Part shown: positions 5,910 through 52,350 of the stretch, piece by piece
Numbering within the stretch: the first letter of the stretch is position 1
Layout of the letters: every line of letters begins with the position of its first letter
Assembly (NCBI RefSeq): GCF_902652985.1
Contig: NC_047031.1
Coordinates: forward strand, 12,710,001-12,774,000
From: Pecten maximus
Taxonomy: Eukaryota
DNA length: 64,000 bases
Direction of reading: 5' to 3'
Made by a program: the position numbers and the translations under genes
The notes under the pieces: model-generated
Databases searched by the model: none
Told to the model about the DNA's origin: nothing
The model's input: the letters and a program-made list of their open reading frames with translations, nothing else

Positions 5910-6278
5910 ATGTCTCCACCGATTATGAATGCTTTATCGGATAAGCGATCAAAGAAAAAAAATAATACTCTTAGCGAAGAGAGAAAAAAATTGAAACAAA
6001 AGCAAGTAAAGAAACGTAAGCAAGATACTAACATGTTCGAATACATCGAAATCAAAAAAACGTTGGGAACATACGAGGAACAGTGGAATGCGGAAAAGAA
6101 TAAATTAGACGATCTTAAATTTCAACACGAAACTAAGATGTTGCAGACGAATATCCAAGAGAGTAAAAAGAAAGTGGTTAACCTCGGAAGACTCATAAAA
6201 AGCTTAAAGACTCTCGCTAATCGTAAGGATCCAAATAAAGACGAAGGTTTGACTGTACATCAGGTAGCAGAAGAATAA
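5910..6278 (+). CDS. Basic coiled-coil hypothetical viral protein
   Basis: Intact 122-aa Lys-rich helical ORF; TATA (gtatataaag, ~5749) upstream and AATAAA at ~6326. Confidence 0.6.
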   Translation: MSPPIMNALSDKRSKKKNNTLSEERKKLKQKQVKKRKQDTNMFEYIEIKKTLGTYEEQWNAEKNKLDDLKFQHETKMLQTNIQESKKKVVNLGRLIKSLKTLANRKDPNKDEGLTVHQVAEE

Positions 6279-6359
6279 CGATTGTAAATATTTGTTTGTT
6301 TTATAATTGACAATTTTTAGATTGAAATAAATCTTTTTTGCATATATTCTTGAACAAAA

Positions 6360-7508
6360 ATGTTTTCTCTTGTTGTTGCCACGATTTTATCATTGGCTTC
6401 TGCCGAAACGGTACTTAGAGCTCAAGATGTGAGTAATTTCGATTCTATCAATATAGACGGTCAGAATGTATACGTTGGCGAATATTACATCAACGTCAAT
6501 GCCTTGACTTACGATTTTACGATAGTCAATGCGTCGAGTGTCGAGTATACGATAGGTACGAAGAGTGGTGTCGAAAGCGTACTGTTGGGTGAAGGCGCGA
6601 CATTTACCGTTCCTTCGAACGAATTGATTGACACGTTGTACGTAAAAACCGAAAACATGGACGATAATACGGTCGATTTGTGGTACATTCAAGCCATACG
6701 ATTTGTCTTGACTGTCGATCAATGCGAATCTGATATTCTAAAGTTTCAATTGACTTCTACACTGAAACAGTCGTATCCCATTATGGGTCGCGTCGAATTA
6801 TTGAATACCAATGATATAAATATGTGTTCTAGCACATCTTTGGTCGGTCCCATTTCTTTTAACAAACCGGCTTGCGGTATAGAATACGAAAAACCCGAAT
6901 TGGTGTTGTTTAGCACAAACGACGTATTTTTGACATTTCAAACTAGTCAGATGTTTAACGTGACTTGTATACAAGATTTCACTATGACTAGTGTAGATCA
7001 CGACGTTTCAGAAGTGACTGTCGAAGTCGACGAGATTCAAAACATTTACGACAGTGCGTATCTCGTAGATTTGAAAATTGTCGATCCTGAAACCGATTCG
7101 CTCGTGTCCGATGTATACGTAGGCGAAAGTGTAAAAATGGTTGTGAGTTTGGGATCGTTGTTTAGAAGAGATTTCGATATTAGAATAGACGAATGTAAAT
7201 TGAGCGATGTAACCATATACGAACACGGTACAGGTCCAACAACCGGATTGTTTACCGATTTTACAGAGACAACCGACGACGTGTTTGAATCAACATTCGA
7301 TGTATTTAGAGTGAATACGAATGCGAAAGCTTCTCAATTGGTTTACGAATGTACTGTAACCACTTGCTTGGGAGAGTGTCCTCCCATGGGCGGCGGTGGT
7401 GAATTGAGAAAGAAACGTAGTGTCGTGTCTTCTTTACTACCTTCCATCGAAGTGGGTCGAGTGAAATCATACAGAACTCTTGCGTTTTTGGAAAATGTCG
7501 AATACTAA
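6360..7508 (+). CDS. Secreted zona pellucida (ZP) module protein
   Basis: Signal peptide; four-Cys ZP-N pattern (CESD...C...ACGI...FNVTC); ZP-C (VYVGESVKMVV, IRIDEC, FDVFR, YECTVTTCLGECP) followed by furin site RKKR; no introns. Confidence 0.8.
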   Translation: MFSLVVATILSLASAETVLRAQDVSNFDSINIDGQNVYVGEYYINVNALTYDFTIVNASSVEYTIGTKSGVESVLLGEGATFTVPSNELIDTLYVKTENMDDNTVDLWYIQAIRFVLTVDQCESDILKFQLTSTLKQSYPIMGRVELLNTNDINMCSSTSLVGPISFNKPACGIEYEKPELVLFSTNDVFLTFQTSQMFNVTCIQDFTMTSVDHDVSEVTVEVDEIQNIYDSAYLVDLKIVDPETDSLVSDVYVGESVKMVVSLGSLFRRDFDIRIDECKLSDVTIYEHGTGPTTGLFTDFTETTDDVFESTFDVFRVNTNAKASQLVYECTVTTCLGECPPMGGGGELRKKRSVVSSLLPSIEVGRVKSYRTLAFLENVEY

Positions 7509-8031
7509 ATTGATAACCGCTGCGAAAAATTTAGAAAGCTCTATATCTATGATGTTTGCTCATTCGGATAGAAAAACCGTCGATAACATTGTAAAAAATG
7601 AACCGAACAATCTCGTCAATAGACAATTGAAACTCGATAGTATAATGTACACTCACGAGATAACCAATAGATTTGTGGAACAATTACACGAAAATGCCAA
7701 GTGTATGAAAAAGTTGGTGATGGACACGAAACGTTTATCTAGGATAAATCTGATAAACGACAAACAATCTGATGATATTGTAAACCGCGTCGAAAAAATC
7801 ACCGCAAATATTGATAATTCTCAACTATTGATGCAAGAAATAATTACTAGCGTTGATTATTTGAAGGTTCACGTCGACAGATCCATTGTGGATGATGACG
7901 AAGATGACGAAGATAGCGGAGATCTTGTTGTGAGAAAGAAAAAACCACCTCCACCGACAACTACGATTTTACCAGACGTACCCACGACATCTCCGTCATG
8001 TTCCGACACGTCTATGACTCATTATTCTTAG
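7495..8031 (+). CDS. Helical protein, possibly a divergent Snf7/ESCRT-III (CHMP4/6/7-like) homologue
   Basis: NRFVEQLHENAKCMKKL..IVNRVEKITANIDNSQLLMQEIITSVD..DDDEDDED..LPDVPT parallels Snf7 helices 3-5, the acidic tract and a MIM2-like LPxVP motif. Confidence 0.5.
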   Translation: MSNTKLITAAKNLESSISMMFAHSDRKTVDNIVKNEPNNLVNRQLKLDSIMYTHEITNRFVEQLHENAKCMKKLVMDTKRLSRINLINDKQSDDIVNRVEKITANIDNSQLLMQEIITSVDYLKVHVDRSIVDDDEDDEDSGDLVVRKKKPPPPTTTILPDVPTTSPSCSDTSMTHYS

Positions 8032-9836
8032 TGTGTACCATTACGGTCGTTGCTGCATTTTATAACGCAGACGACGGAGAATGGTTTAGACCGTGTTACC
8101 ACACCGGTAACGAGGCTGAACATGGATTGACTATTGTTACGCCGTACGTATCTGATATATACGATACCGGTAACATGACAGACCAACAATTTTTAGCTAC
8201 GAGTGGATTACCTGTCTGTCTGATAATGCTCCCCAGTAACGAAACGACGACCTTGGCAAAGTATAATTTTTACAGACTTTATCGCAACATGCCTACATTG
8301 TCTAGTGAAGAATACAGGAAACAGATGAGTGCTGTAGTTCGTCTGATGAATTATGATCTCGTGGAAGAAGGAGTGGCGTTTGGTTACAAGAAATGGTTCG
8401 GTAGACAAGATAATCGTGTAAAGGGTGGAGTTGTTCCACCGGAAGTGACAACGACCCTATATTATACGGACAAATACGAATTGTTTTTTTATTACGACGG
8501 TCTACCTAACGAGAAGGAAAGGAGAAAGATCGACCAAAAAGGTTGCATAGATGGTGGTGTGAGATACGGCGATTACAAGTGTCTGTTTTTAACAAAATTT
8601 TACGGTCATCCTTGGAACGACTGTGCTGGAAAAAACGGTGCCGAATTGTTCGACGTAGACGATACTGTGGTGTCTAGTTTGGAAGACTATTTTAGAATAA
8701 ACAGAAATGAGACTAAGGATCTATTTGTGGTGGGACAAGTGCGCGGCGATGGTGGTCACATAGGAGGCTACAATAGAATATTTCGTAAGGGTGTTAAAAA
8801 CAGAAATTATTACAACGGATATACCGTCGGTGATCCATTGACCATGTCGTTTCACGAATCTAGTCCGGTGCTTCACGACTACGATTTAAGTATACCTCGT
8901 TACGTGGTTTGTACAGAGACTGCATATAACGAGCGTGCCATGGTTAAATGCTCACAAGATAGGAAATACAGTTTCGAGCACGATTGGTGTAGACAATTCA
9001 TGTTTCCTGATTCGGAATACGAAAAGATGCTCGAATCTATACGAAACGCCGATAGAATTAAAAACTCGAACTTTACACATCTCGTATACGTTGTGAATGA
9101 AGAACCGTCTACAACTACAACAATTCCTACAACGACCACAACGACGACCACAACAATTCCAACGACTACAAAAATTCCAACAACGACGACAATAATTCCA
9201 ACAACAACAACCACAACAATTCCCACAACGACAACGACGACAACAATTCCTACAACGACGACAACGACGACCACAACAATTCCAACGACAACAATAATTC
9301 CTACAACGAATACCTCCACAATAATTCCTACAACGAATACCTCCACAATAATTCCTACAACGAATACCTCCACAATAATTCCTACAACAACGACCTCCAC
9401 AATAATTCCTACATTTACAACAATTCCTACAACGACCACCACGACTACGACAATTCCTACAACAACGACCACCACGACTACACCTACAACAACGACCACC
9501 ACGACGACTACTACGTTAATGAAATCCACGACGACGTCGATTATTGCAAATTCTTTTACAGACTATTTTCTGCATTGGGGTAATAGAGCATTAACGACAT
9601 CCACACCTACGACAACAGAAAATTTGACCGAAAGTGGTGAATTTATGTCTATGGCAGATACGCGATCGGATGATTATATTAGACGATTCGTGTTAATTAC
9701 GGCTGGAATAACGGCTGGCTGTTTAGTGTTTTTCATCGCTGTGACATTTGTCGGCATATGGAGTTGTAAAAAATGGAATACGAATTATTGCGATCAAGAC
9801 AAGACTGTAAAATATTCAGGCGTTTCGAGAATTTGA
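7998..9836 (+). CDS. Type I membrane glycoprotein: C-type-lectin-like domain + Thr-rich mucin stalk + TM
   Basis: Signal peptide; CIDGGVRYGDYKCLF...WNDCAGKNGAELF...YVVC CTLD-like pattern; (IPTTTT)n stalk at 9110-9515; TM FVLITAGITAGCLVFFIAVTFVGIW. Confidence 0.8.
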   Translation: MFRHVYDSLFLVCTITVVAAFYNADDGEWFRPCYHTGNEAEHGLTIVTPYVSDIYDTGNMTDQQFLATSGLPVCLIMLPSNETTTLAKYNFYRLYRNMPTLSSEEYRKQMSAVVRLMNYDLVEEGVAFGYKKWFGRQDNRVKGGVVPPEVTTTLYYTDKYELFFYYDGLPNEKERRKIDQKGCIDGGVRYGDYKCLFLTKFYGHPWNDCAGKNGAELFDVDDTVVSSLEDYFRINRNETKDLFVVGQVRGDGGHIGGYNRIFRKGVKNRNYYNGYTVGDPLTMSFHESSPVLHDYDLSIPRYVVCTETAYNERAMVKCSQDRKYSFEHDWCRQFMFPDSEYEKMLESIRNADRIKNSNFTHLVYVVNEEPSTTTTIPTTTTTTTTTIPTTTKIPTTTTIIPTTTTTTIPTTTTTTTIPTTTTTTTTTIPTTTIIPTTNTSTIIPTTNTSTIIPTTNTSTIIPTTTTSTIIPTFTTIPTTTTTTTTIPTTTTTTTTPTTTTTTTTTTLMKSTTTSIIANSFTDYFLHWGNRALTTSTPTTTENLTESGEFMSMADTRSDDYIRRFVLITAGITAGCLVFFIAVTFVGIWSCKKWNTNYCDQDKTVKYSGVSRI

Positions 9837-10381
9837 TGTTGTTGAACGATTTATGTCGTGCCGTGCCTAAAGAAGTGGTGGCGAGTGTTTGTGGTGGATT
9901 GTACGAACATATCAAAGATGTTACGACGAGGCGGCTACCGTCGACATTTTTTCAATTTTTAAAACATTGTGCTTTATTGATGTTGAAAAATACACTAGAA
10001 GAAAATTTTGATGATGTGACAACTGTTAATGATGTGATTAATTTGAACAATCTCGAAATAGATCGTTATTGGAACAATGTCGATTCGTTTAAGAATGCAG
10101 ACGAGGCAAGATGCATCATAAACGATTTGTTAATCAAACAATGTAGTATTTTATCGAGAAAATTGTACGACAATATTGGTGATAATCATCCTCGGTGTAG
10201 TGCGTGTATCATTGATGCAATCACTATGGGTACCGGTAGACAAGATGATATTTGTGATAATATGATGAAACGTAAGAGTACTTCTTTTACCGATACGTCT
10301 GTATACGATAACACTTGTTATCATGTCTTACTTAAATCTTGTGGTAAATACGATAAATTAATCAAGAAAAATATGCAATGA
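9836..10381 (+). CDS. Cys-rich hypothetical viral protein
   Basis: Intact ORF; likely start ATG overlaps the previous stop (TGATG, 9834-9838); alternative start at 9773. Confidence 0.65.
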   Translation: MLLNDLCRAVPKEVVASVCGGLYEHIKDVTTRRLPSTFFQFLKHCALLMLKNTLEENFDDVTTVNDVINLNNLEIDRYWNNVDSFKNADEARCIINDLLIKQCSILSRKLYDNIGDNHPRCSACIIDAITMGTGRQDDICDNMMKRKSTSFTDTSVYDNTCYHVLLKSCGKYDKLIKKNMQ

Positions 10382-10601
10382 CTCTTGCCCTCCTCTTTTT
10401 TCCTCCTCTGGTTAGACAATTTTTGGTTGTCTTTTTATATAAAAAAAATATATATATCGTTGCAAGCCGTTTTTTATGTCTTGAGCAAAGTTTTGTTCGT
10501 TCTTTTTGCTGCCAATCGTGGCTGTAATTAGTACTGGGTCTTGATGATTCTTACGGCTGATAGCCAAGGCGTTTTCTGTCTCACACTTATGTTGTACATT
10601 C

Positions 10602-10955
10602 TCAACTCAGTGATTTAAGTATCAATCTCTCCACTGTTTCTGTGGGGCGTCTTGGGATGTATTGTGTTTCATTCCATTTTCCTATGTTGTTTGAGCTGCG
10701 CTCTTTTTGCAATAAATAAAAAAAACGTATATAAATTACACATATCTCATGGTTTTTATTCGTCTTCCTTCTACATTTACATCGTTTGTACGACCAAAAT
10801 CCACACATGGAACCGAGACAACTACAACAAAATATCAAAGATACGAATGTCAATAAGACTATGATGATGATCGGATAATATTCCAAGACGAGACCGTGTG
10901 CGACATCGTTTATGGTTTTCGATAAGAGATCAAAATCAATGTCGATGTTTATCAT
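10602..10955 (-). CDS. Small single-pass membrane protein with juxtamembrane Cys cluster
   Basis: TM IIIIVLLTFVSLIF followed by CCSCLGSMCGFWSYKRCKCRRK; divergent from PolB across a TATA-containing spacer; 3' end uncertain. Confidence 0.55.
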   Translation of the reverse strand: MINIDIDFDLLSKTINDVAHGLVLEYYPIIIIVLLTFVSLIFCCSCLGSMCGFWSYKRCKCRRKTNKNHEICVIYIRFFYLLQKERSSNNIGKWNETQYIPRRPTETVERLILKSLS

Positions 10956-11089
10956 CGTGAAACAATAAGTTGTTCCGTTTTTTCAAACAATGTATTGTTT
11001 TAAGACAAAAAAGGTCTAAACACTGTATTGTTTTTAGAAAAGGTATATATTAAACCGGTCTCTTCTATAGTGTTAGTCGACACGCCGTT

Positions 11090-13300
11090 ATGGATTGGCT
11101 ACAGTCTACGTTAGGAGTTATTCGAACTAGGAAATTAGAAAGAATAAAAAATGAATGTTCTAACGAAAAGATCGTAAAAGACACGATACGTTATTGTAAC
11201 GAAAACGGTTTGCCGAACGTACGATTGGTCGATGACGACGTTTACGATGCTTTGTTTGTCGATTCTTACGACAATTGTCGACGATACGATTGCACGGTTT
11301 TTGAAGTGTCGAAATTTAAAGAACCTGATTTCCAGGGTAAATACTTGATATCGTGTGTGTTTGATATAGAAACTGTCAACCGTTTTCAAAATAGCGAAAT
11401 AAACGACAAAATTGTTTACATCGTAATGGATACTTGCATAGCAAATAAATTACCGCCCGTCGATACGGTCTGTCTGTGTGTCACGAATCCGCTAGTAAAA
11501 ACGTACAAACGAGTGGAGAATAGGCGTTATAAATTGAACGAGTTTTCGAAACGATATGCTCACATGATCACCGATCAATATTTCGACGAAAAAACTGAAA
11601 GATATTACAATGTAGTTTATTGTCACGAAAGCGAAAAGAAATTAGTCTTATCGTTTTTAGAGATGTTGAATCGTATAAGACCACACAATCTAGTGACGTT
11701 TAACGGCGAAACATTCGACATTCCTTACTTGATAAGAGCTTGTTATACTCACGACAAAGATATGGCCAACGAATTATCGTTGATTAAACCGGGCATTTGC
11801 AAACATAGCGGGTCTCGATCCATACAGATGAATAAAAAACGTTTACCGAATCGAGGATTCATAAACAAATCCGTTTTAGATCTACAACACGATTGTTTTC
11901 AAGCATTCATACATACAGATCTGTCTAAATATAATAAGGGATCTCTAGACGAAGTGTGTACGAAACAGTTGGGGGCGAAAAAAGTGAATCTATCGTATAC
12001 AGAAATACCACACCTTGTCGAAAGTAGACACGAAAAATTGTTGATTTACAACATAAGAGACACGGAGTTGACAACTAGACTTTTCATGAAGGATTATTTC
12101 ATGACGATAGGATATTACACCACGTTAGAAAAAATCAATTCCGTCTTGTGGGATGTTTCTAGTAGCATGAAAAGATCGGTTCCGGCGTATCAAGCTAATT
12201 ATTCTACGAACGAACGACACGATTTCGTTCAGCCTAGCGTGTTGAAACCGCGCAAGAAACAAGTATGGGTGGTGTACAGAGAAATGATATCCTATTTTGT
12301 GAAACACAGGCAGCAACAGAACCTAGACGAAATGAAATACGCAGACGCTAAACAAGCGTTAGTCGAGTATCACAACGGTAACGTCTCGATGAAAGATCAA
12401 CAGAAATGGTATCGATTGAAAAAAAACGTGACTTCGGCAGATGCCATCGGTCTTTTGGAACGACAAATGAGAGACGTACATAAATACACTACGTTTGATT
12501 TATTGAATTACTTGTCGTACTTGTCGAACGTTTGCACACAATTTACGCCTTTTCTGATGTTGTTCAATAATAAATTTCTACGCACCTATTCTTTCGACAA
12601 ACCAGACCGTATCGCGAAAGAACGCGAAAAGTTTATGGAATTTGCGTATTATCTAACGACGGTGAGAAGATTCATATCTCCTTTCGATACAGCGAAGATA
12701 TGTTGGGCTAGTTATGCCGAATACTACAACACTCACACCAACGTTCGCATACTGAAACAGTTTTTCGACGACCATTTCACGAATCGCAAGACCGGCACGA
12801 TAACTCGAGAATTATACGATGTAGTCGTCGAATGCCAACGAAATAATACACATCGACGTATATTTCAAAATCCAGACAAGATAGTCGACGATATAATGGA
12901 AAGTTTATTGGCCAATTACAAAGAGTTGGTCATAAAAACGACGTACGATGGCGCATTCATCGCCGATCCTGTATCGGGAATCAATTGTGAATTTCCCGTA
13001 GTTGTCGTCGACATAGCATCGCAGTATCCGTCTTGTATAAGAGCTTTGAATCTGAGTGCTCAGACAGAAATCTCGTTGGAATACATAGAAAGAAATCGTC
13101 CGAAGCGCGGAACTGATTTTTACGCCGTCAATTTACGACGATGCGACGATTTGATTGAGTACGAGGTCTATCTAGAGTTAGGCATGAGAGAATACGTTAA
13201 CGATATCGATTATGTTAAAAATATTGTATACAACAAATTCATGTCAAAACGTAACGAAAATACTATAAACGTTAGCGGGTTCCTCGTGTTTGCCGCATGA
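11090..13300 (+). CDS. polB: Family B DNA polymerase, N-terminal part (3'-5' exonuclease + motif A only)
   Basis: ExoI VFDIET, ExoII TFNGETFDIPYL, ExoIII YNIRD, YDGAFIADP..G and VVVVDIASQYPS; no KxxxNSxYG or YGDTDS before the stop. Confidence 0.92.
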   Translation: MDWLQSTLGVIRTRKLERIKNECSNEKIVKDTIRYCNENGLPNVRLVDDDVYDALFVDSYDNCRRYDCTVFEVSKFKEPDFQGKYLISCVFDIETVNRFQNSEINDKIVYIVMDTCIANKLPPVDTVCLCVTNPLVKTYKRVENRRYKLNEFSKRYAHMITDQYFDEKTERYYNVVYCHESEKKLVLSFLEMLNRIRPHNLVTFNGETFDIPYLIRACYTHDKDMANELSLIKPGICKHSGSRSIQMNKKRLPNRGFINKSVLDLQHDCFQAFIHTDLSKYNKGSLDEVCTKQLGAKKVNLSYTEIPHLVESRHEKLLIYNIRDTELTTRLFMKDYFMTIGYYTTLEKINSVLWDVSSSMKRSVPAYQANYSTNERHDFVQPSVLKPRKKQVWVVYREMISYFVKHRQQQNLDEMKYADAKQALVEYHNGNVSMKDQQKWYRLKKNVTSADAIGLLERQMRDVHKYTTFDLLNYLSYLSNVCTQFTPFLMLFNNKFLRTYSFDKPDRIAKEREKFMEFAYYLTTVRRFISPFDTAKICWASYAEYYNTHTNVRILKQFFDDHFTNRKTGTITRELYDVVVECQRNNTHRRIFQNPDKIVDDIMESLLANYKELVIKTTYDGAFIADPVSGINCEFPVVVVDIASQYPSCIRALNLSAQTEISLEYIERNRPKRGTDFYAVNLRRCDDLIEYEVYLELGMREYVNDIDYVKNIVYNKFMSKRNENTINVSGFLVFAA

Positions 13301-13331
13301 ATAAAACAAAACAAACAAAAAAGGATGTTTT

Positions 13332-13901
13332 TTATTTTTTTATTTTCTTTCTATGAAAAATGTGACCGCAACTGACAAGACATTTTTTGTCTTCGCATAT
13401 TGAAGGGTTTGTATAACTGATAGTTATTCTTTTCAAATTGTTAGACTTTATTATCAAATCGATTTTTTTTTTCCCCGTTAACATATATCCCATTCCGGAA
13501 ATTGAAAATGATTCTATTTCTTTATGTACACTAGGGCTTACGATTAAATTATAAAGATTGCCCATCGCACTGTAATTCGTCCACTGTATCAAATATGGTA
13601 ATGTTTCTTCTTCTTTCGATGTTTCAAAAGCCTTTTCCCAATCTTTTCGAACGTTCATCCAATGATTTACACTTGCACAATTTTCTTTTTTCATAACAAT
13701 CCCATACGTTTCGTGTACTGGATTAGACCATCTTGCACAAGTCAAAGCGAGGTTGATTTTTTCTGCGTCTCCTAAAAATTCGTTTATACGATCTGTAACC
13801 AAACGAGGTAGTCTATCGAATATAGAATCTGTTACAGAATCGCTATCGATACCTAATGATTCATTTGTTAAAAGGAAAACTTCCATATCCGGCTGAAACA
13901 T
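13332..13901 (-). CDS. F-box-like protein
   Basis: IFDRLPRLVTDRINEFLGDAEKINLALTCARW fits the F-box consensus; ATG at 13901 with TATA at ~13981. Confidence 0.65.
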   Translation of the reverse strand: MFQPDMEVFLLTNESLGIDSDSVTDSIFDRLPRLVTDRINEFLGDAEKINLALTCARWSNPVHETYGIVMKKENCASVNHWMNVRKDWEKAFETSKEEETLPYLIQWTNYSAMGNLYNLIVSPSVHKEIESFSISGMGYMLTGKKKIDLIIKSNNLKRITISYTNPSICEDKKCLVSCGHIFHRKKIKK

Positions 13902-14016
13902 TTTTTCGATGGGTAGATAACTCTGTAAAGATATACAGGAGATCCACTTCTGATGGCTGTTGTAGGATTGAATGGCGGAATATATATAACAACGGGTGGT
14001 TAATCTAATTTTAAAA

Positions 14017-14210
14017 CAGAACAATAAGTTATTCTGACTCTGAGAGAATAATTAATTATTCTCCATCAGAACAATAAGTTATTCTGACTCTGAGAATAAT
14101 AAGTTATTCTCTTATTTATTGTCGAATAATAAGTTATTCTCCTTTTGGATAATACCTCTCTCCTCCCCCTTTTACCATCAGTCTGCTATAGTACGTGGTA
14201 GAGATAGGAT
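14017..14210. repeat. hr-like palindrome cluster 1 (5 copies)
   Basis: Imperfect palindrome GAGAATAA-TAAG-TTATTCTC repeated, followed by the atcagtctg...gtacgtggt.gaga motif shared with cluster 2. Confidence 0.85.
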
Positions 14211-14549: not shown

Positions 14550-15900
14550 TACCGCGGGTTTTTTTAAAAAAAAAACTATTTCGCGGGTTTTTTTTAAACA
14601 TTTCCCGCGTTAGACTTGTCACATGATTTTCATAAATTGCAGACGTGGACATCTGCTAAGTCGGTCACAGCGGTTTTTAAAAAGTGAACTTTATACTCAA
14701 AGTTCAGGTAAACATCTGCCAAGTGGGTCAGCTGGAACTTTGCACTTTAAACAAAGGAATCACGTGTTATTTTTCGACAGATGTCGAGGTCGCACGTGGA
14801 AATAATAATACATTTTGACGTCAGTCGCTTGTAGGTTAAACCTTTTAACACGTGTTGAAAGATTTAAGTGGTTTAAAAATATGATCTTTGTTTGTTAAGG
14901 GGGTCAGTGAGAGGCCGCAAGAGGTTTTTCCCCACAAAACAAAGTGTCAGTGAGAGGCCACAAGGGGTTTTCAGGTGTCAGTGATTGTTTTCCCAGACTT
15001 TTTGGCACCAAGCCACTTGGGAGGTTAAGTGTTTTAAAATGTTCTTTGTTTGCCAAGGAGGTTAAGTGGGTTTACAAACATGTTCTTTGTTTGCAAAGGG
15101 GGTCAGTGAAAGGCCGCAAGAGGTTTTCCCCACAAAAAAAGTGTGAAGGACGTCTCTCGACCAATGAAAGCGTTTGTCTCTTTGACCAATGAAAAAGTAG
15201 GTCTCTTTCGACCAATGAAAGAGTTGTATTTGATCACGTGGTGACGCGGTTGCTAAAGAGAGAACTGTTTTGTTAGTCAATAGTCCACAATATCTCGGAG
15301 AGAGAGGACGTATGTTTGAGCCAGTGGAGAATATAGAAAACTTCAAGCAGAGAGAAACAGGGTTTATATTAACGTAAAAAGGTGAGTGTTTTTTTTTTAT
15401 ATATTTTGGTGTGTGTATAAAGATTTTACATCCAGAATATCCAGTAAAATAGCCGGCAATTCAGTATATAAACACATAGAGTTAGAGAGAAACAGGGTTA
15501 ACGTTGTGGTTTTATAAAAAATTTGGTGTTACAAAGCCGGTAAATGGTTATTAGCCCTACGAGAAATCTTGAACAGGAGAAAAATTGTAAATGATGGTAA
15601 AATAAACGACATAACTTCACCATGGCTGTTTTATTTTTTCAAATATGAAGTTTATAACCCTACATAACTCGGCTCCGGCATCGTGACCGACGTTATTTCG
15701 TGATAACTCAGTTTGAAAATGAGTACAAGTCAACTAACCTATTTTCGGTTTCGGTCTGCGTGACGTCAGTCTCGTTGTTGTGTATATATACACACTGGAG
15801 GTGGTGTATTATATATACACTGGAGGTGGTGTGTTATACCGAACAATTAGTTGAACAATTAAGTTATCAAACAATTAATTATCGAACAATTACCGAACAA
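14550..15900 (+). promoter_or_regulatory. Non-coding enhancer/promoter-like block
   Basis: Three gaccaatgaaa CCAAT boxes at 25-26 bp spacing (15161, 15186, 15212), E2F-like cgcggg/tttcccgcg, CACGTG, TGACGTCA (~15761), duplicated ~40-bp units at 14900 and 15100. Confidence 0.45.
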
Positions 15901-15987
15901 TTGATTGTTTTACCACATTTCAAAAATACAATATATTGTTTTGCAATTCAATTAAAATTTCATTTCTTTTTTTTTCCAGAAACAAAT

Positions 15988-16379
15988 ATGTGGTTTAAGT
16001 ACAGCCCTAAAGGTACAAGGCCTCCTTCCACGTACGACGCTTCAGAATGGCTGGAATTATTGAGGAACAAAGGTTACGTGGACAACACCAACCTGGACGA
16101 CGGTCGCCTGACAACAATGAAATTATTTTCATTAACGAGCAACAAACTTCATCACCGTCCAGATGATACTGCAACAATCGTATCAGAAATTACACAATAC
16201 CTAATTGGTAAAGGAGAGGATACAACAGACATCTTGAAACAAATGGAAGTAATTACAAAATGGAAGAGCATCTATCACAAGACACCCAAGGCTCCCAATG
16301 AACACAGTTATCCACAGCGCTATAGAATCTGGGATTTACGGAAAGTGGGTGTGAATGAAAACATGGCACTGGATTGTTT
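15988..16379 (+). CDS. Hypothetical protein with a possible DED-like segment, running into the assembly gap
   Basis: YDASEWLELLRNKGYVDNTNLD resembles DED helices 4-5; ATG preceded by a polypyrimidine-CAG acceptor. Confidence 0.45.
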
Positions 16380-17088
16380 NNNNNNNNNNNNNNNNNNNNN
16401 NNNNNNNNNNNNNNNNNNNNNNNNNNNNNNNNNNNNNNNNNNNNNNNNNNNNNNNNNNNNNNNNNNNNNNNNNNNNNNNNNNNNNNNNNNNNNNNNNNNN
16501 NNNNNNNNNNNNNNNNNNNNNNNNNNNNNNNNNNNNNNNNNNNNNNNNNNNNNNNNNNNNNNNNNNNNNNNNNNNNNNNNNNNNNNNNNNNNNNNNNNNN
16601 NNNNNNNNNNNNNNNNNNNNNNNNNNNNNNNNNNNNNNNNNNNNNNNNNNNNNNNNNNNNNNNNNNNNNNNNNNNNNNNNNNNNNNNNNNNNNNNNNNNN
16701 NNNNNNNNNNNNNNNNNNNNNNNNNNNNNNNNNNNNNNNNNNNNNNNNNNNNNNNNNNNNNNNNNNNNNNNNNNNNNNNNNNNNNNNNNNNNNNNNNNNN
16801 NNNNNNNNNNNNNNNNNNNNNNNNNNNNNNNNNNNNNNNNNNNNNNNNNNNNNNNNNNNNNNNNNNNNNNNNNNNNNNNATCAGCCACAGCAATTCTTGT
16901 GGGAAAAAACAACAACATTCATCTAATAAGTCTTGATTCTGCTTCAACACTTCTAAATCTTGTACAGAAGACATCCGAGAGAAGATACACCTGAACAACA
17001 CCTGAACAAACAATGATTATGATGTTCCATCGTTGGTATATATACGCACAACACACCACCCACACACACGAACAATACATTGTTCCGC

Positions 17089-17853
17089 CTAAGAACAAGT
17101 TATTGTTTTGTCTGCCGTCATCACCTTTTCTATTGGTCCTCCGGCGTCTTCAATCCATGCATTGATTTCTTCAAAAGATATAGGAGGATAATACATACAC
17201 ACCGATATCAATTTATTGTAGTCGATATCTAATCCGAGCTTGATGATGCTCGATATCACTGTTTCGCACGATGTAGTATTATTGCGCAGCAAATCATGCA
17301 TTGTTACACAATAATGTAATGTGTATTCTTTATAATCCACATCCTGTAGGTCGTATTTATGGATCAACCCTACCGCAATACAGGATTCTGATGCACCTAA
17401 AACTCTACACAATCTTCTCAAGTCTCTATCTTTTTCAATACTATTGGCTATACAAAACAATTGAATTCCCGTCACTTCTTGTTTCAACTTGTTCAATCCC
17501 ATAGCAACCGAACACACGTTGTTCGAAAAACCGAGATTTTCTAGACAGGTTGCCATAATAAATATCACATCATCGGCAGGGTTTGCTCGTATATTCAAAA
17601 CCCATTTATGTATCAACCGATAATTTATCTCGTAGTCGTCATCACCGCTGTTGATGCAATCTCTTACAAAAATACTGATTGTTTGTTTCGTTTGTTCTCC
17701 AATATCATAGTTGTCTCCTGACACTAATTGATGGACATCTTTTGTAGTTAGAGTCAAAGCTAGATGATCAATCAGTGTGTTCCAGTTTACGTCATCTAAT
17801 ATCTGGTCCATTAGCCTAGAAACAGCATCGTATACGTGGTACGGAAAAACCAT
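17089..17853 (-). CDS. Tandem death-domain-like protein
   Basis: VTGIQLFCIANSI..DLRRLCRVLGASESCI...ETVISSIIKLGL matches the death domain pattern; the N-half (NWNTLIDHL...YRLIHKW...MATCLENLG) looks like a second copy. Confidence 0.65.
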   Translation of the reverse strand: MVFPYHVYDAVSRLMDQILDDVNWNTLIDHLALTLTTKDVHQLVSGDNYDIGEQTKQTISIFVRDCINSGDDDYEINYRLIHKWVLNIRANPADDVIFIMATCLENLGFSNNVCSVAMGLNKLKQEVTGIQLFCIANSIEKDRDLRRLCRVLGASESCIAVGLIHKYDLQDVDYKEYTLHYCVTMHDLLRNNTTSCETVISSIIKLGLDIDYNKLISVCMYYPPISFEEINAWIEDAGGPIEKVMTADKTITCS

Positions 17854-18041
17854 CTTCTTGCTTTTCTATTCTGATATTTTTACAACGTTTTATATATATC
17901 TACTGGTTAAACTGAAACAATGTATTGATCTGTTTATGGTCGATAAATTTCCGGTTTTTTGTTTCTTTCAACTGTCATAGTTAGAAAACTATTAGTGAAT
18001 TACAAAAAAAAAATAATTTACAAAACACAAAAAAAAAAACA

Positions 18042-18440
18042 ATGAGAGGGTTAGTTACATTACTGGTAGTAGTAGCAGTGACGTTATTAAAACATGGTGA
18101 CGCATCAAAAGTATTTATGTCGCAACCGGTCAATCCTTGGGTTCAAGAACAACCCCGAACCGTTTTTCACGTGCAAGTACCAGAAGATGTCCCATTTTGT
18201 GGTAACGAATATTCACATCATTTAGCTTGTATGTACTGTGTTGGATCATCGTGTGATGGTCAGGATATTGAAGGAAACGAGATATTAGTACATTTTAAAG
18301 ACGACGACAAAGTTTGTATCAATCGTTTAAAAATTGTAACTGATCCTTTCCCCGATGGTATGTGTGGTCCGTGGATCGATAGTCATACTATGATCGCCGA
18401 TAATTTTCCGAGACGACGTCCTAATCCTCCCAGCAAATAA
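18042..18440 (+). CDS. Secreted six-Cys protein of unknown function
   Basis: Signal peptide, 6 Cys, AATAAA overlapping the stop. Confidence 0.7.
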   Translation: MRGLVTLLVVVAVTLLKHGDASKVFMSQPVNPWVQEQPRTVFHVQVPEDVPFCGNEYSHHLACMYCVGSSCDGQDIEGNEILVHFKDDDKVCINRLKIVTDPFPDGMCGPWIDSHTMIADNFPRRRPNPPSK

Positions 18441-18516
18441 AACAATTTATTGATTTAGACTCACTTATATATATATATATATATGTAATATAGTGCAATG
18501 TGTCATCACAACAACA

Positions 18517-19338
18517 ATGGTTGCGCTTGTACTACTCGTTAGTAATCGAGATTTTAAAAACAAGTCAGAACGTCCACAAAGATTTGGTGCTCTTAGAGAT
18601 GCAAAAACACTCAGAAGATGTTTTTCAAAATATCCAGGTATCAAATTTATGGAAAAATATGATGACGAGAGTCGAGAATTTAACGACGTGGAACACATTC
18701 ACATCAATTTAACAGAGAAAGATCTGTTAGAAACATTAAAACGAGCGGCTATACGTATCGAAGAGTCTGAATTCGAAAGTTTTATATGCGTAATATCCTC
18801 TTATGGATCGGGATCAAAAATGGTAATGTGTCCTGGGGAAGGCAGAGTCTTCGGAAGCCCAGTGACTGGATTGTTTAAAAACGGAAAATTAGTCGGAAGC
18901 CGCTATCTTGGATCCGAAGAAAAGGACAGTATCGTTAGAGTGCAAGATATTATCGACATTTTTAACAAAACAAAAAAAATTCCAAAGTTTTTCTTCATCC
19001 AGAACGATTGTCCATACGAAATAACCCATTCGGGAAAGAACCACGTCACTCCAGTACCAGAATGGGTTGTTAACCAACAACAACCGACGTTATTATGCGA
19101 CAACGTATTGATACATTCGATGCCCCAAGATATAGAGTCGTGTTGGGGATGGTTTCGAAACAGAGGACGAGGTTTGTCTCATTACACACAAGCATTGTGT
19201 AGAGCATTGACCGATTACAACAACACAGATGATTTCATTTCGCTATTGAATAAAATATTCAAGGACGATGATAAAGAAGAACCCACAACGTTATCTACAT
19301 TATTAGGTAACAATAATTCATTGTTTGTCCATGCTTGA
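18517..19338 (+). CDS. Caspase-fold (peptidase C14A) protein with altered catalytic residues (cFLIP-like pseudocaspase)
   Basis: LLVSNRDF..RFGALRDAKTL, NLTEKDL, SFICVISSYG (normally SHG), KIPKFFFIQND (normally QACRG), RNRGRGLSHYTQALC, PTTLSTL. Confidence 0.85.
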   Translation: MVALVLLVSNRDFKNKSERPQRFGALRDAKTLRRCFSKYPGIKFMEKYDDESREFNDVEHIHINLTEKDLLETLKRAAIRIEESEFESFICVISSYGSGSKMVMCPGEGRVFGSPVTGLFKNGKLVGSRYLGSEEKDSIVRVQDIIDIFNKTKKIPKFFFIQNDCPYEITHSGKNHVTPVPEWVVNQQQPTLLCDNVLIHSMPQDIESCWGWFRNRGRGLSHYTQALCRALTDYNNTDDFISLLNKIFKDDDKEEPTTLSTLLGNNNSLFVHA

Positions 19339-19393
19339 CAATAAATTGTTTTATATATATATATAAGTTGTGTGTGTGTGAAAAGAGATAACC

Positions 19394-19705
19394 ATGGTGG
19401 ACTTAGGTCGACCCATAACAGGGCGTGTATCGGATGTTAGGGTGGAATCTACAATGATTATCGAATTGGATGCACCACCCAGTCAATCTCTAGCTCCATA
19501 CCTAGGAATACGGACAGACGCTTATGAAGTAATCCACGCACTATATGATAAAAACATCATCGGTTTTGAACACTACCAAGTTCTCGCTGAATCTTTGAGA
19601 GAGTCGGCCAACGTAATCGACAAAATTAAAATCAACCTAATCGGCGAGAGGACTTCTCTAAAGAAGAAAACCACAAAAAAAGGAAAAGGACTTCAAACAG
19701 AGTGA
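19394..19705 (+). CDS. Small protein with a DED-like segment
   Basis: RTDAYEVIHALYDKNIIGFEHYQVLAESL resembles the DED C-terminal half; own TATA (19351) and AATAAA (19751). Confidence 0.5.
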   Translation: MVDLGRPITGRVSDVRVESTMIIELDAPPSQSLAPYLGIRTDAYEVIHALYDKNIIGFEHYQVLAESLRESANVIDKIKINLIGERTSLKKKTTKKGKGLQTE

Positions 19706-19829
19706 AGCGTCTCAGGAAAAGAATGAACAATACATTGTTGTAAAAAAAACAATAAATTGTTTATACATTATATATATAAAAGTGTTTTTTTTTTTTTTTT
19801 TTGGAAAACTTCCAAAAATGGAAAGTAAC

Positions 19830-20120
19830 ATGAAAAAACTCGAACGTTTGTTGGCCACTATGTCATTTGAAGATGCATACTAGAAAAATACGAAGAAAAT
19901 ATGGAGCTTGGAAATGACAATGATCATCGATGCAGCAATCGACGTTGTGGCGAATTCTCTATCTCCATACCTAGGAGGAGGATTACAGTAGACATTTTTG
20001 AAGTAGTTAGTGCGTTATAAAAACCTCATCTGTTTTGGAAATTACATCGAAGAATCTTTGATGATGGAGGATGTTGAGCGACATAATCGTCAATTACACA
20101 AGAAAAATGAAAGATTTTAA
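19830..20120 (+). pseudogene. Degenerate tandem paralogue of ORF 19394-19705
   Basis: 19955-20060 (tctctatctccatacctagga...gaagta...aaaacctcatc...gaatctttg) aligns with 19487-19598; stops and frameshifts present. Confidence 0.7.
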
Positions 20121-20164
20121 TGAACTCAACATAATGGACATATTCCGACCACAAAAAGAAGTTC

Positions 20165-20440
20165 AAAACGTCTAAAGAACATTAAAAAAGTCTGATTAAA
20201 GGACCCGATGAGGGGTCCTATGGCCGTTCGTACGAAGAACATCCGTGATTCTGTCACCAGAAACGGAGCATCACCCGGGGGGGTCCACATGAATTATTGG
20301 AGCCGGAAAGATGTGTTCCTGTGATATCGCGGGGACATGTCACTTTAAAAAACGCCCTCTTTCCGTTGTGGACTTGTGACACCGCCCTAATCCAGTACAC
20401 TCAATTCATGTGTAACAAACACCTCAGACGTTTTTTTTTT
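20165..20440 (+). ncRNA. Candidate structured non-coding RNA
   Basis: GC-rich island with six or more nested stems, G-U pairs on the + strand, pairing ends and a terminal T10 run. Confidence 0.45.
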
Positions 20441-20576: not shown

Positions 20577-21084
20577 TTTCTCAGTAACAAGTTGTCAATC
20601 AGTTAAAAATTTGAGCATAGGTTCGTTTCGTAAATCACATAATGTATATATCCTAGGAAAAATGTTAAAATGGTTGTACAATGTATGATGTTTTTATACA
20701 ACGTAATAAGTGTTGTATCAAGTGTTTTACGGTCACGAAAAATTTGAGCATAGGTTCGTTTCGTAAATCACATAATGTATATATCCTAGGAAAAATGTTA
20801 AAAAATGGTTATACAAATGTTTTTATACAACGTAATAAGTGTTGTAGCAAGTGTTTTTATACAACGTAATAAGTGTTGTAGCAAGTATATACATCACGAA
20901 AAATTTGAGCATAGGTCCGTTTCGTAAATCACATAATGTATATATCCTAGGAAAAATGGTTATACAATGTATGATGTTTTATACAACGTAATAAATGTTA
21001 TAACATTGTAGGAAGTGTTTTACAATGTAATAAGTGTTTATACATTGTAAGATAAATCAGTTTTTTTTCTCAGTAACAAGTTGT
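20577..21084. repeat. Three ~133-160 bp tandem units bracketed by a 19-bp direct repeat
   Basis: aaaaatttgagcatagg at 20605, 20738 and 20899; tttctcagtaacaagttgt at 20577 and 21066. Confidence 0.9.
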
Positions 21085-21151
21085 TGTCTTTCCCCTGTAA
21101 CATTATATATTACCTCCTCACAAAAACCTTTGCTTGAATAACCCTACAGCA

Positions 21152-21805
21152 TGTCCTCTCTCCACCACGTACGATAACAGACTGATCCTGTCTATTGACT
21201 TTAGACTAATAAATAACGAATAACTTATTATTCTCCATCAGAATAACTTATTATTCTCATAGACAGAATAACTTATTATTCTCATAGACAGAACAATTTG
21301 TTATTCTCCATAAGTCAGAATAACTTATTATTCTCCTTTTGACAATTGAGAATAACTTATTATTCTCCTTCGAGAAATTCGACAAATAAGAGAGAATAAC
21401 TTATTATTCGACAATCTTATGACGATGTACCCACAATCTTATATAATCGCGTCCCACGACACAACCCAACACGACGTTCTCTCTCTCCCACCACGTACAG
21501 ACTGATCCTGTCTAATGACTCTCTAGACTAATAAATAACGTATTATTCTGACAATTGAGAACAATTTATTATTCTCCTTTTGACGATTGAGAATAACTTA
21601 TTATTCTCCTTCGAGAATAACTTATTATTCTCCTTTTTGAGAATAACTTATTATTCTCACAATTGAGAACAATTTATTATTCTCCTTCGACAGAACAACT
21701 TGTTATTCTGACAATTGAGAATAACTTATTATTCTTCGACAGAACAATTTATTATTCTTCGAACAACACACATTGGATCAGTCTGTACGTGGTGGAGAGA
21801 GGACA
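21152..21805. repeat. hr-like palindrome cluster 2 (~16 copies) inside ~30-bp inverted flanks
   Basis: GAGAATAA-CTTA-TTATTCTC variants; 21152-21188 is inverted to 21775-21805. Confidence 0.9.
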
Positions 21806-22019: not shown

Positions 22020-22893
22020 AACGTCGAGCACGTCGTATGCAATGGGCAACGGCACATATGCCCAGACGTTTTCCTATGAGACGTTGGAGGTCTATGCTCT
22101 TCACCGATGAATCTCGATTCACGTTATTTCGAGCAGATGGCCGTCAACGTGTGTACCGGCGTCGAGGCGAACGTTTTGCTGACGCCTGTGTTTTGGAACA
22201 CGACCGATTTGGGGGTGGATCAGTTATGGTTTGGGCGGGAATCTCCCATGGTTTGAAGACGCCTTTGGTGATAGTCAATGGGAATTTAACGGCCGTACGC
22301 TATCGGGATGAGATCCTTAGGCCCCATGTTGTGCCGTTTGTTAGGCAGCATCATCTAACCTTTCAGCAAGATAACGCGAGACCACACGTTGCAAGAGTCT
22401 GTAGAGACTTTCTTGCGACACAGAACATTGTTCCTATAGATTGGCCTCCATATAGCCCCGACCTGTCCCCAATCGAGCATTTGTGGGATGAATTAGACAG
22501 AAGAATTCGAAATCGCCGTAACCCCCCAAATACCCTCCCTCAGTTAGCAAATGCACTCGTCCAAGAATGGAATAACATTCCAATACGGAAAGTCAATGCC
22601 CTGATGAACTCAATGCAACAAAGAATTAGAGATGTGATAACTGTTCGAGGAGGACACGCACGATATTAGGGCACGGTTTCAAAACTGCTGCCATTTCAAC
22701 TTGGATTCACGTAGGGTACTACCAATCATGACCTTCTAGCAAAGTGACCTGTTCTTAAAAATCTCTAAACATTTAAAGGATGTTACATCAATATTCAATA
22801 TTAACTATTACATATGAAATTTAAACATAATGCTCACAAGTATTATTTTATTAAACCTACAATTTGAAGTTGCGTTTCTTTTTCTTTTCAGTA
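22020..22893 (+). mobile_element. 5'-truncated Tc1 copy, near-identical to 1931-2804
   Basis: Direct match with a few substitutions; right TIR present, left TIR and DNA-binding region absent. Confidence 0.95.
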
Positions 22894-22899
22894 TATATA

Positions 22900-24844
22900 T
22901 ATGAATGTCCACGTGTTTGTTGTCATACTGGTCAAGAGGTGTATGAGACCTATTTTACCTGTCCGTACATAAAACTGTCCGAAGTGATGTCGTATATTTA
23001 CATTGAGGCAATGGGAAGGCCAAAGTAATGGCAGTTATTGGTATATGTGATTTGGCCAAGAAGTTAGTACTCTGTAGGCATAAAAGAGCCAACGCATTAC
23101 TGGCTACCAACACACTTTGAGTTGACCAGCCAACAAGCTAGTCGAATCATTTCGAAGTCCCTGTTCCGGGGTTACGAATATATGACATCACTTTGCGTCC
23201 CTGTATTTCCACATTCATTTTTGGACATTTTTAACTTTTGGAACTTGTATAGTTGATGTACGTTTTGGACACGGAATAGTAATAAAACGAAAGGAATCAA
23301 GAACTGTCAATTAATTAAGTTCATGTAGTCACCTCAAGTGTTACATGGCTTATTAATGGTGCCGTGACCAGGATTTATTATTTCAAAAAAAAACCAAACA
23401 AACATCAAATGGACAATCAAAAACAGACAACCAGAACCGTAAAGATTGTGTACCTGCCAATGATCATCGTGGAAATTAAGCCAGAGCCCGCTGTTGTAAA
23501 ACCACCGACATTTAAGGAGATTAGGGAGCGACTAAATATACCCTTGGCAGAACCAAAACTGATCGACGGAGTAGTCCCGGCCGGATACGAGGAGAGACCA
23601 TTGTAAAGTACTGGGTAAGTGGCTTACTGATTTTGTTGTTTTTATACCTTTGTATTTTTAATCAAACATGGTCGACCAGGCAGGGTTTAAAGAGGTTTTC
23701 GATGCACTTTGCGATCAAGTGGGGGTATTTGGGGCTTCCGTAGCGATCTAAGGGGCGGGGGCCAACATTAAAACATTCGAAGGGGATTCCAAACAGTTTA
23801 AAAGTTGGTTGCGTTCTGTCGACCGTTACGCCATAGCGACTCAAATACCTGATGGAATGCGACATTATTATGTCGCATTAGTCAGCTGGTGGCGTGGTGG
23901 CTGACTTTATGCAGCGGTACTTGAACGAGCACCCTGGGGTGGCATGGGCGGCGTTTAAGGCCGAACTAGAGCTAAGGTTTGCGGAAATTGTCGACCCGCA
24001 ACATGCGCTCGACGTTTTAGAGACAGTTAAACAAAAGAGTGGCGAGAACGTTGAAGTCTTTGCAGAAAGACTTACAGACATAGGGAAAGACTCATTCGGC
24101 CAGGACCTGAGTAACGACCTCATCCAACGTCAGTTGGTGGGGTACTTCACAAAGGGACTACACAATCCGGAAATTAGGATGAAACTAATCAGGGAAAACC
24201 CCGATAAGTTAGAAAGTGCCCTTAAAATAGCTAGGGATGAACAAAATGTAAGGCGTTGGTTTGCGTTGCACTCTCTCTCACCTAGACATTCAGATGGTGC
24301 TTCTGGGGTGAGGCAAGACGTAGAAATAGATCACTATCGAAATCGACAGTTTGTTTGTTTGTTTATGTTTTACGGCCCATCCACAACTAATCGAAATCGA
24401 CAGTGTTACAAATGTGGGAAGCAGGCCACATAGCAAAAAAATGTAGGTCAGGTGCGAAACAAATTAAAGCCTATAAACAGCATCAGGGTAATCAACAAAA
24501 TCAGGGTAACGGACAATAGAATGTTGGCATTGTGGGGGTCCCCAATTAAACGGTAACAATCGAAAAAACTAGGAAACTCCTGTCATGTCAAGGCCGATGC
24601 CAGGAGAAGAAAAGCGTAAATTCCAAATAAATTTGGCAGGAAATCCAAATTCAATTTTAGTTAAAATAAATAAACGAAAATTTAGGGCTCTAGTAAATTC
24701 AGGAGCAGAAGTATCGCTTATTCATAGCAGGGTGTATCGATGTTGAAAGATCCTCCGAAGCTGACAAATCAAAGTTTACTTACAATCTGTAAACGGTAGT
24801 TCACTGACTACTGACGGGGCGACAACTCTAAACTTTCAAGTGGG
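22900..24844 (+). mobile_element. Gypsy element 5' part: LTR remnant, tRNA-His PBS, small uORF, decayed gag-protease
   Basis: LTR end aagtgttaca at 23345, PBS at 23357, gag VADFMQRYL...CYKCG, protease FRALVNSGAE; closely related to 52.1-53.7 kb. Confidence 0.9.
24351..24389 (-). mobile_element. 39-bp LINE tail insertion with 15-bp TSD
   Basis: atcgaaatcgacagt duplicated at 24336 and 24390. Confidence 0.9.
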
Positions 24845-33743: not shown

Positions 33744-34243
33744 NNNNNNNNNNNNNNNNNNNNNNNNNNNNNNNNNNNNNNNNNNNNNNNNNNNNNNNNN
33801 NNNNNNNNNNNNNNNNNNNNNNNNNNNNNNNNNNNNNNNNNNNNNNNNNNNNNNNNNNNNNNNNNNNNNNNNNNNNNNNNNNNNNNNNNNNNNNNNNNNN
33901 NNNNNNNNNNNNNNNNNNNNNNNNNNNNNNNNNNNNNNNNNNNNNNNNNNNNNNNNNNNNNNNNNNNNNNNNNNNNNNNNNNNNNNNNNNNNNNNNNNNN
34001 NNNNNNNNNNNNNNNNNNNNNNNNNNNNNNNNNNNNNNNNNNNNNNNNNNNNNNNNNNNNNNNNNNNNNNNNNNNNNNNNNNNNNNNNNNNNNNNNNNNN
34101 NNNNNNNNNNNNNNNNNNNNNNNNNNNNNNNNNNNNNNNNNNNNNNNNNNNNNNNNNNNNNNNNNNNNNNNNNNNNNNNNNNNNNNNNNNNNNNNNNNNN
34201 NNNNNNNNNNNNNNNNNNNNNNNNNNNNNNNNNNNNNNNNNNN

Positions 34244-48317: not shown

Positions 48318-48388
48318 CTTCCCTGATGATTCTAAAACAACAATAATATATATTTGTCATTCAATAACTATTTACAAATATTCAAGGC

Positions 48389-51300: not shown

Positions 51301-52350
51301 TACACAAAATCTTTTTGACCCATCTTTTTTATCAACTATTACCACTGGAAAACTCCAGGGTGATGTTGACCTACTGATAACCTTAGCTTCAAGCATTTCA
51401 TCTACAGCTTTATCAATAACGTTCCTTTTGTAAAGCGGGGTTCTATAGGGTCTCATTTTTATTGGAGGGTGGTTACCCGTGTCAATCTTCATTTTCACTG
51501 TGTTTGCACAACCTAAATCAGAATCAGTTTTAGCAAAGATATCTTGATTTCTTTTGACCAAATTGACAAAGGCTGAATGATGTTCAGTTGTCACTTGTAT
51601 TTCCTTCTCAAAATCGTCTGACGTAACACTACTGATGTCTTTTGTTACCTTGGTCTGATCTATTGTCACTACATTTTGTTCCGGTACTCCCGAAACCTTA
51701 CCTAGTGTACATCCTCTCCTCAGTTTTATTGTCTTATTGGTGTTATTAACAATCATTACTGGGAGTCTGAGAATATTGTCGGCTTTAGCTATAGAATTCG
51801 TGACCGTTACACCTGGTTCATTATACACATAATAATGTAGTAATGTAATAATGTAGTGTTTTTAAGATATTCTCTGTCCTTGACCTTACCTTCACATACT
51901 GTGGCGGTCTGTGGTTTTAAAATAACTTCCTTGTGAACTCTAACAAGTGAAGAAATATGAATATCTTCTTCTAATGGTACTGGTACATAGGCTTTACGTA
52001 ATCTGAAACAACGTAAATCAAAATAAACTCTAACACCATTGTCTTGTAACCAGTCTTTGCCTAAAATGATATTTCTGTTCATGTTCTTAACAACAATAAA
52101 CTGATGTGTCAGTGTTTCATTACCCACTCGAAAGTCTAGAGTTGTCGCCCCGTCAATAGTCAATGAGCTACCGTTTACAGATTGTAAGTAAACGTTGTGT
52201 TTTTTTCAGCTTCGGAGGATCTTTTAACATCCGATACACCCTGCTATGAATAAGTGACACTTCTGCTCCTGAATCTACTAGAGCTCTAAATTTTTTGTTT
52301 ATTTATCTTAATTAGAATTGAATTAGGATTTCCTGCCAAATTTATTGTAA
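48389..52350 (-). pseudogene. pol: pol (PR-RT-RNase H-IN) with several frameshifts and stops
   Basis: LVDSGAE, RFCVDFR, MPFGL, YLDD, ADLLSR, H-x-C-C region, GLDLSGP, TDNG, GPY/F-like KWRPYF. Confidence 0.93.

Follow-up and report, generated by a model that had tools for sequence, protein, structure and literature searches.

In a 64,000-base stretch of the genome of the scallop Pecten maximus (C17:12710001-12774000 of a 918-Mb assembly; referred to below as the window, with positions counted from its first base), we identified within a virus-like insert an intronless gene for a stand-alone caspase domain that lacks the catalytic His, together with a neighbouring gene for a probable death fold. 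We give a probability of about 0.5 to the reading that a viral ancestor captured a scallop caspase already devoid of this His, and that the products of the two genes, open reading frames (ORFs) D and B, likely act as dominant-negative decoys against host cell-death and immune signalling. The span in question, 15988..20120, had been described in a sequence-only reading as a cassette of five neighbouring genes (three with a likeness to death effector domains, DEDs; one with two death domains, DDs; one pseudocaspase) that would together form a 'split cFLIP'. Two of these five parts stand, the pseudocaspase firmly and the death fold probably.

The stand-alone pseudocaspase proposed earlier was indeed found. 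ORF D (18517..19338, plus strand, 273 amino acids) matches the caspase profile PF00656 over residues 4-247 (E-value 2.5e-10; 40.9 bits against a cut-off of 21.4), both the p20 and the p10 parts being recognised, and its best PDB match is the ancestral caspase-3/6/7. The His/Cys catalytic dyad is not intact: Tyr96 stands at the place of the catalytic His (SYG replaces SHG), and the Cys motif reads IQNDCP as compared with the QACRG type. Ungapped alignment with the host sequence IQGCTP puts Asp164 at the Cys place and the Cys of ORF D one residue later, while in one alternative alignment a gap shifts this Cys into register. The Arg (R22) and Gln of the S1 pocket are retained, as is a C-terminal P-x-x-x-S-x-L segment, in which, across 16 aligned rows, S260 is invariant and L262 nearly so.

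The closest match of ORF D in the genome is an intron-containing, caspase-7-like host gene with the same SYG change (XP_033762013.1; C15:6387483-6396511), one intron of which holds transposon-like sequence. A profile search collected 15 proteins from scallops, abalones and other sources, all with PF00656 as the sole Pfam domain and 13 with SYG; a word search for ORF D relatives gave none from 489 candidates. In a tree of 26 rows and 243 columns, ORF D and a second genomic copy on C10 (see below) group with four scallop-clade SYG proteins with support of 97/99, and over 193 columns ORF D is 35-37% identical to these four, as against 13-19% to the DED-linked caspase-8-like genes. Grouping of ORF D with two DED-linked caspase-8-like host genes was rejected by the approximately unbiased (AU) test (p=0.0004), and a tree from a 59-column core of the caspase domain gave no decision (p=0.17). 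The 26-row tree includes long viral branches, flagged as such by the tool, and several partial rows, and vertebrate cFLIP is absent from it; a paracaspase row (L084) was removed from the core tree and had no part in the 26-row tree. Judged from these sequence relationships, ORF D derives from a DED-less, caspase-3/7-like mollusc family in which His had already been changed to Tyr, and not from caspase-8 or cFLIP.

A caspase family search of the whole genome gave 53 matches, including a second intronless caspase domain at C10:40726456-40727154 (XP_033753212.1), in which SYG is present and the Cys motif is missing. This copy adjoins the small subunit (R2) of ribonucleotide reductase (RNR), orphan ORFs and a repeat of about 55 bases that is otherwise found only at 20599..20954 of the window; together with an acidic repeat ORF these make up a second virus-like fragment (C10:40722650-40730617), preceded by a full Tc1 copy. 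The C10 copy is 24% identical to ORF D and 33-37% identical to the scallop proteins, and only 39% of bootstrap trees unite the two virus-like copies in a clade, so that one capture and two captures are both compatible with the tree. The acidic ORF gave a weak match to CARD_2 below the cut-off (E-value 0.0034). Host-built profiles revealed no gene with a DD or DED in the 90 kb around the C10 copy; the search for the same cluster elsewhere therefore indicates that the pseudocaspase recurs and that the cassette does not. A further candidate locus at C4:7.286-7.291 Mb was rejected, the match being to simple satellite only. The C10 fragment is adjoined by a long tandem array (C10:40699785-40720639) of units of about 617 bases, each with a 98-codon ORF, and is followed by Polinton-like polymerase and ATPase genes (C10:40734736-40740825).

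The viral context suspected for the span was confirmed by its surroundings. Between about 5.9 and 21.9 kb, the window consists of intronless, tightly packed ORFs amid pieces of host Tc1, Ty3 and long interspersed nuclear elements (LINEs), with 94% coding sequence in the block 5910..13901 and 86% in 17089-20120. A profile match identifies at 11090..13300 (plus strand) a truncated family-B DNA polymerase (PolB), a marker of large DNA viruses, which stops at 736 amino acids as compared with 823-1248 in long relatives. The six PolB relatives are 36-47% identical to it; one lies on a 213,672-base contig, possibly a whole virus, and some on multi-megabase contigs, which are probably other endogenous viral elements (EVEs). 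Viral and metagenome contigs and phage records contained no relatives of PolB or ORF D, and PolB marks a virus lineage without a named relative among the searches made. Neither a capsid nor a terminase gene was detected; the terminase search with PF02499 gave no match and was uninformative, for no control was detected either.

The PolB-containing block continues without a gap into host Tc1, Ty3 and LINE sequence on both outer sides, with a viral hallmark gene contiguous with host sequence as in an EVE, and the insert is present also in a second DNA sample. In our reading, the region is a piece of a large DNA virus that became integrated and has since partly decayed; the virus used host-type TATA and polyadenylation signals. 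To call the insert herpes-like would be a guess from published invertebrate EVEs. At its right end the insert is adjoined by the 3' piece (22020..22900, plus strand) of a high-copy host Tc1 transposon, a full copy of which lies at about 1262-2811. This family carries an intact 339-amino-acid transposase, has 409 candidates genome-wide, and all 40 scored copies are 100% identical over 639 bases; a Teratorn-like fusion of Tc1 and virus was set aside because the family is young, with its roughly 400 candidates.

ORF B (17089..17853, minus strand, 254 amino acids, intronless) is the gene for which two death domains had been claimed, and this claim probably holds for one half of the protein. The C-terminal half (approximately residues 125-225) is probably a death fold, as judged from structural models and profile comparisons, and the N-terminal half possibly a second death domain, for which the signs are weak. 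In a structure search of 48,161 chains, 26 of the 50 top matches of ORF B were death folds, with chains of viral FLIPs (vFLIPs) among the weak matches, and the five highest query template-modelling (TM) scores among 43 Foldseek rows all belonged to death domains. The halves gave hhalign probabilities of 1.9% and 8.8% with the host DD profile, none of 25 shuffles being as good in either case, z-scores of 2.3 and 2.0 with a death-domain profile, and atlas scores of 0.84 and 0.81. The host profiles were built from 24 of 30 DD loci and 20 of 25 DED loci, after six and five near-duplicates, respectively, had been left out. ORF B has no Pfam match, no sequence match in PDB and an E-value of about 1 with host DDs; a search of 1.84 billion proteins gave no relative at E<=0.001, and the gene is single-copy, no other copy having been found in the genome. 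A helix-4 Trp found in each of 23 host DDs is missing from its C-terminal half, alignment of one half with the other gave no clean repeat, and the full-length AlphaFold model (mean confidence, pLDDT, 39.6) was unusable.

The three genes said to be DED-like, ORFs A, E and F, could not be substantiated as such. ORF A (15988..16379, plus strand) is readable for 130 amino acids and then cut by a run of 500 N (16380..16879), probably a scaffolding gap; ORF E (19394..19705, plus strand) encodes 103 amino acids with a basic C-terminal tail; and ORF F (19818..20120, plus strand) is broken by three in-frame stops (19881, 19989 and 20004). With a profile of 20 host DEDs as the control, true host DEDs score 27-68, as against 8.5 for ORF E (z 1.5; 8 of 120 shuffles as high, and two control ORFs equal to it) and 4.7 for ORF A (z 0.8; 23 of 120 shuffles as high), even though ORF E ranked third of 679 frames (E-value 1.1). 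Only in hhalign was none of 25 shuffles as good; it aligned 21-28 columns with DED helices 4-5 at a probability of 3.1% for ORF E and 0.4% for ORF A (score 12.4), and the likeness of ORF E to these helices is very weak. Neither ORF A nor ORF E matched a DED in Pfam, PDB or the atlas, and pieces of ORF F gave no significant DED match. Neither ORF E nor as much of ORF A as can be read shows the RxDL motif, but this test is weak because only 6 of the 20 trimmed host DEDs show the motif in their last 25 residues. ORF E has no relatives elsewhere in the genome. ORF F is its dead paralog (tblastn E-values of 0.002 and 0.039 in two frames, and two short blastn matches), and we treat ORFs A, C and E as viral orphans with no fold assigned; a remote or partial DED may yet be hidden in ORF A or E. 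ORF C (18042..18440, plus strand, 132 amino acids), which the earlier description left out, is an orphan with six Cys and a hydrophobic, signal-peptide-like N-terminus; its product is probably secreted and, on present evidence, does not look like a death-pathway protein.

The span thus holds six ORFs, and those named earlier do lie there, but as a set of five neighbouring genes they are divided by ORF C, one of them is broken, and the adjacency of ORF A to ORF B is not established, since ORF A lies beyond the N run and is preceded by another ORF on the unplaced contig C3953. The latter (C3953:10-1963) carries window positions 15264-16105 at 99.8% identity, an 88-base scrap of PolB and a different, coiled-coil-like ORF of 381 amino acids, and represents an alternative layout of this insert, in which another ORF precedes the start of ORF A. 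In a DNA run (X4) that belongs to a different study and sample, contigs span 16894-20180 with a single letter changed and small differences in intergenic length; in them ORFs B-E are open and identical, and the letters of ORF F are the same in X4 and in the contigs of a further run (X5). This agreement indicates that ORFs B-E are open and ORF F broken beyond this assembly. Contigs of three runs, guessed to be RNA, cover parts of ORFs B-F.

Each gene had also been credited with a TATA box and/or an AATAAA signal of its own, and this holds for most. TATAWA is present 34-51 nucleotides before the ATG of ORFs B, D, E and F (41-45 for ORF B and 39-51 for ORF D), i.e. in four of the five genes named, against a background of 51 in 306 windows; ORF A has none within 120 nucleotides. 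AWTAAA follows the stop of ORFs C, D, E and F (background 62 of 306 windows), with AATAAA at 18436 for ORF C and directly after the stop of ORF D; among the four named genes with a known stop, ORF B alone is without it. A polypyrimidine tract plus AG just 5' of ORF A suggests an intron ahead of it.

The sequences show that a scallop caspase-3/7-like gene already without the catalytic His was captured, and that the viral copy lost the introns and the long N-terminal region and changed further at the Cys motif, while staying open with promoter and polyadenylation signals. Its action as a decoy could be as follows. Caspases work as dimers whose halves meet through the final strand of the small subunit. 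ORF D would retain the caspase fold including this C-terminal dimer strand and, given that the C-terminal segment with S260 and L262 is kept, would pair with host caspase zymogens, either forming unproductive dimers with them or trapping substrates through the kept S1 residues. ORF B would cap death-domain assemblies of the FADD, MyD88, RIPK1 or caspase-8B type; the host possesses a FADD-like locus with DED plus DD, as well as DED-caspases. The two would be separate decoys, at the adaptor and the caspase level, and not halves of one cFLIP, and a decoy role for genes of this span is plausible. A wider proposal, which we consider rather doubtful, is that an as yet undescribed lineage of large DNA viruses of scallops turned the host His-less caspase, captured perhaps twice, into a new class of cell-death inhibitor, in which a stand-alone pseudocaspase decoy beside a tandem death-domain decoy and highly diverged single-DED mimics would act on the molluscan extrinsic pathway at every level from adaptor through initiator to executioner.

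ORF D might instead keep or redirect the role of the host SYG protein, be it that of a scaffold, an allosteric activator or a substrate trap, perhaps promoting cell death to help the virus spread, as do the active ascovirus caspases. The dead-looking site is inherited and not made by the virus, R22 and the Gln of the S1 pocket are kept, some viral caspases are described as promoting or remodelling cell death (parts of PMC10583209), and an anti-apoptotic role of the site-less CSP-3 of C. elegans was not replicated in one study (PMC3591282). We regard this alternative as unlikely, for in ORF D the catalytic Cys, too, is lost or displaced and the long N-terminal region is gone, the C10 copy lacks the motif altogether, and the inhibitors of apoptosis listed for mollusc viruses include BIR proteins (PMC5552708). 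It is rather improbable, too, that ORF D is the only death-pathway gene and that ORF B is an unrelated helical orphan, the 'cluster' having been imposed on small helical viral ORFs; the lack of a Pfam or PDB sequence match, the E-value with host DDs, the low pLDDT, the missing helix-4 Trp and the want of such a neighbour at C10 are all in keeping with it, but four different methods favour a death fold for ORF B and none favours another family, and the 26 death folds among the 50 top matches are judged to be far above the (uncounted) share of such folds in the chains searched.

The full 'split cFLIP', in which ORFs A, E and F would be DED mimics that rebuild, with ORFs B and D, a cFLIP-like block of the FADD/caspase-8 platform, is improbable as well. 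The rank of ORF E among the frames, the success of ORFs E and A over all shuffles in hhalign, their position next to a real pseudocaspase and the presence of FADD-like and DED-caspase genes in the host speak for it; it fails on the origin of ORF D from the DED-less SYG family, with caspase-8 kinship rejected by the AU test, on DED scores at the level of control ORFs with no database match and no RxDL, and on the layout, ORF A lying across a gap, ORF F being broken and ORF C interrupting the series. Finally, the genes may not belong to a virus: they might be host retrocopies, be carried by other mobile elements (Polinton-like or Tc1-flanked) or be a fossil now used by the host, all of which we consider highly improbable. 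Tc1 adjoins both fragments, Polinton-like genes lie near that on C10, the block is near-identical in several samples, and neither capsid nor terminase was found. However, the abundance of Tc1 copies means that adjacency needs no link, the block is dense and intronless with a PolB whose relative lies on a 213-kb contig, RNR R2 is present, GC content and promoter style are common to the orphan genes, and ORF D, only 37% identical to the host gene, is far more diverged than scallop orthologs are among themselves.

A virus-borne decoy of the death pathway is known as a kind, and the core of the earlier proposal, a stand-alone pseudocaspase with a putative decoy function, is real, its DED parts having been overstated and the insert being decayed. 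Viral FLIPs (MC159/MC160, KSHV K13 and other gammaherpesvirus vFLIPs), defined by two DEDs in parts of PMC7823800 and PMC13233873, are likewise virus-borne mimics presumed to jam the platform, whereas here no DED is demonstrated, ORF B is closer to death domains, and the dead caspase domain is separate. With cellular cFLIP-L, ORF D has in common an inactive caspase-like domain and, as we infer, heterodimerisation, but it lacks fused DEDs and its ancestry lies in the caspase-3/7-like SYG clade. The mollusc SYG caspases (XP_033762013.1 and relatives) share with it SYG, C-x-G after SYG and the PYEI and GW-R-R-RGLS segments, and ORF D nests in their scallop clade; in contrast, the host gene contains introns and encodes a long disordered N-terminus as well as the Cys, and ORF D is intronless, is limited to the caspase domain, carries a 26-amino-acid insert and has an altered Cys motif. 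Parts of PMC7836458 state that no FLIP homolog was identified in bivalves and that the His-to-Tyr change occurs in oyster Cg3A, a case to be compared with the SYG clade.

Ascovirus caspases and giant-virus metacaspases are, like ORF D, caspase-family genes of large DNA viruses, but are described in parts of PMC10583209 as proteases aiding infection, whereas ORF D has no catalytic His and stems from a pseudoenzyme of the host. Endogenous herpes-like elements (BelcheriHV-1, Capitella and Branchiostoma EVEs; parts of PMC12373286, PMC5552708 and bioRxiv 10.1101/2025.04.19.649669) resemble the present case as integrated fragments of large double-stranded DNA viruses with PolB and RNR; unlike them, our insert has no established place in Herpesvirales, and the anti-apoptotic genes listed there for malacoherpesviruses are BIR proteins. 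The word 'caspase' is absent from the main text of PMC5552708 and of the bioRxiv survey (10.1101/2025.04.19.649669). In the literature covered, mostly outside the subscription journals, the viral death-pathway decoys described are DED-only FLIPs, receptor mimics, Bcl-2-like and BIR proteins, the viral caspases are proteases, and no dead viral caspase derived from a host pseudocaspase is reported. A dead caspase whose gene stays intact in two virus-like inserts that have diverged would represent another type of inhibitor, and offers a handle on the role of bivalve His-less caspases and on how caspases are tuned in animals that have no known FLIP. Viral decoys made up of a CARD or a pyrin domain alone also exist.

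Other features of the viral block include a ZP/VERL_C-like secreted protein (6360-7508; E-value 0.0009, below the cut-off), a membrane protein whose long mucin stalk is rich in Thr (7998-9836), and an ORF on the minus strand with an F-box-like N-terminus (13332-13901; PF12937, E-value 0.031, below the cut-off), which might possibly be a viral ubiquitin-ligase adaptor. AT-rich repeat arrays at 13999-14209 and 21140-21800, inverted and 72-88% alike, bracket the cassette and are possibly origin- or hr-like elements; the part at 21481-21801 is palindromic. A 240-base element at 20190-20432 was rejected as a gene and is a dispersed repeat, present at at least 40 other places, often in pairs about 320 bases apart, and also within 2.2-kb tandem units on C10. 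Elsewhere in the window, a second run of 500 N (33744-34243) joins unrelated repeats, and a Ty3/gypsy element with gag, reverse transcriptase, integrase and an envelope F-like ORF lies in pieces at 46780-53098 on the minus strand.

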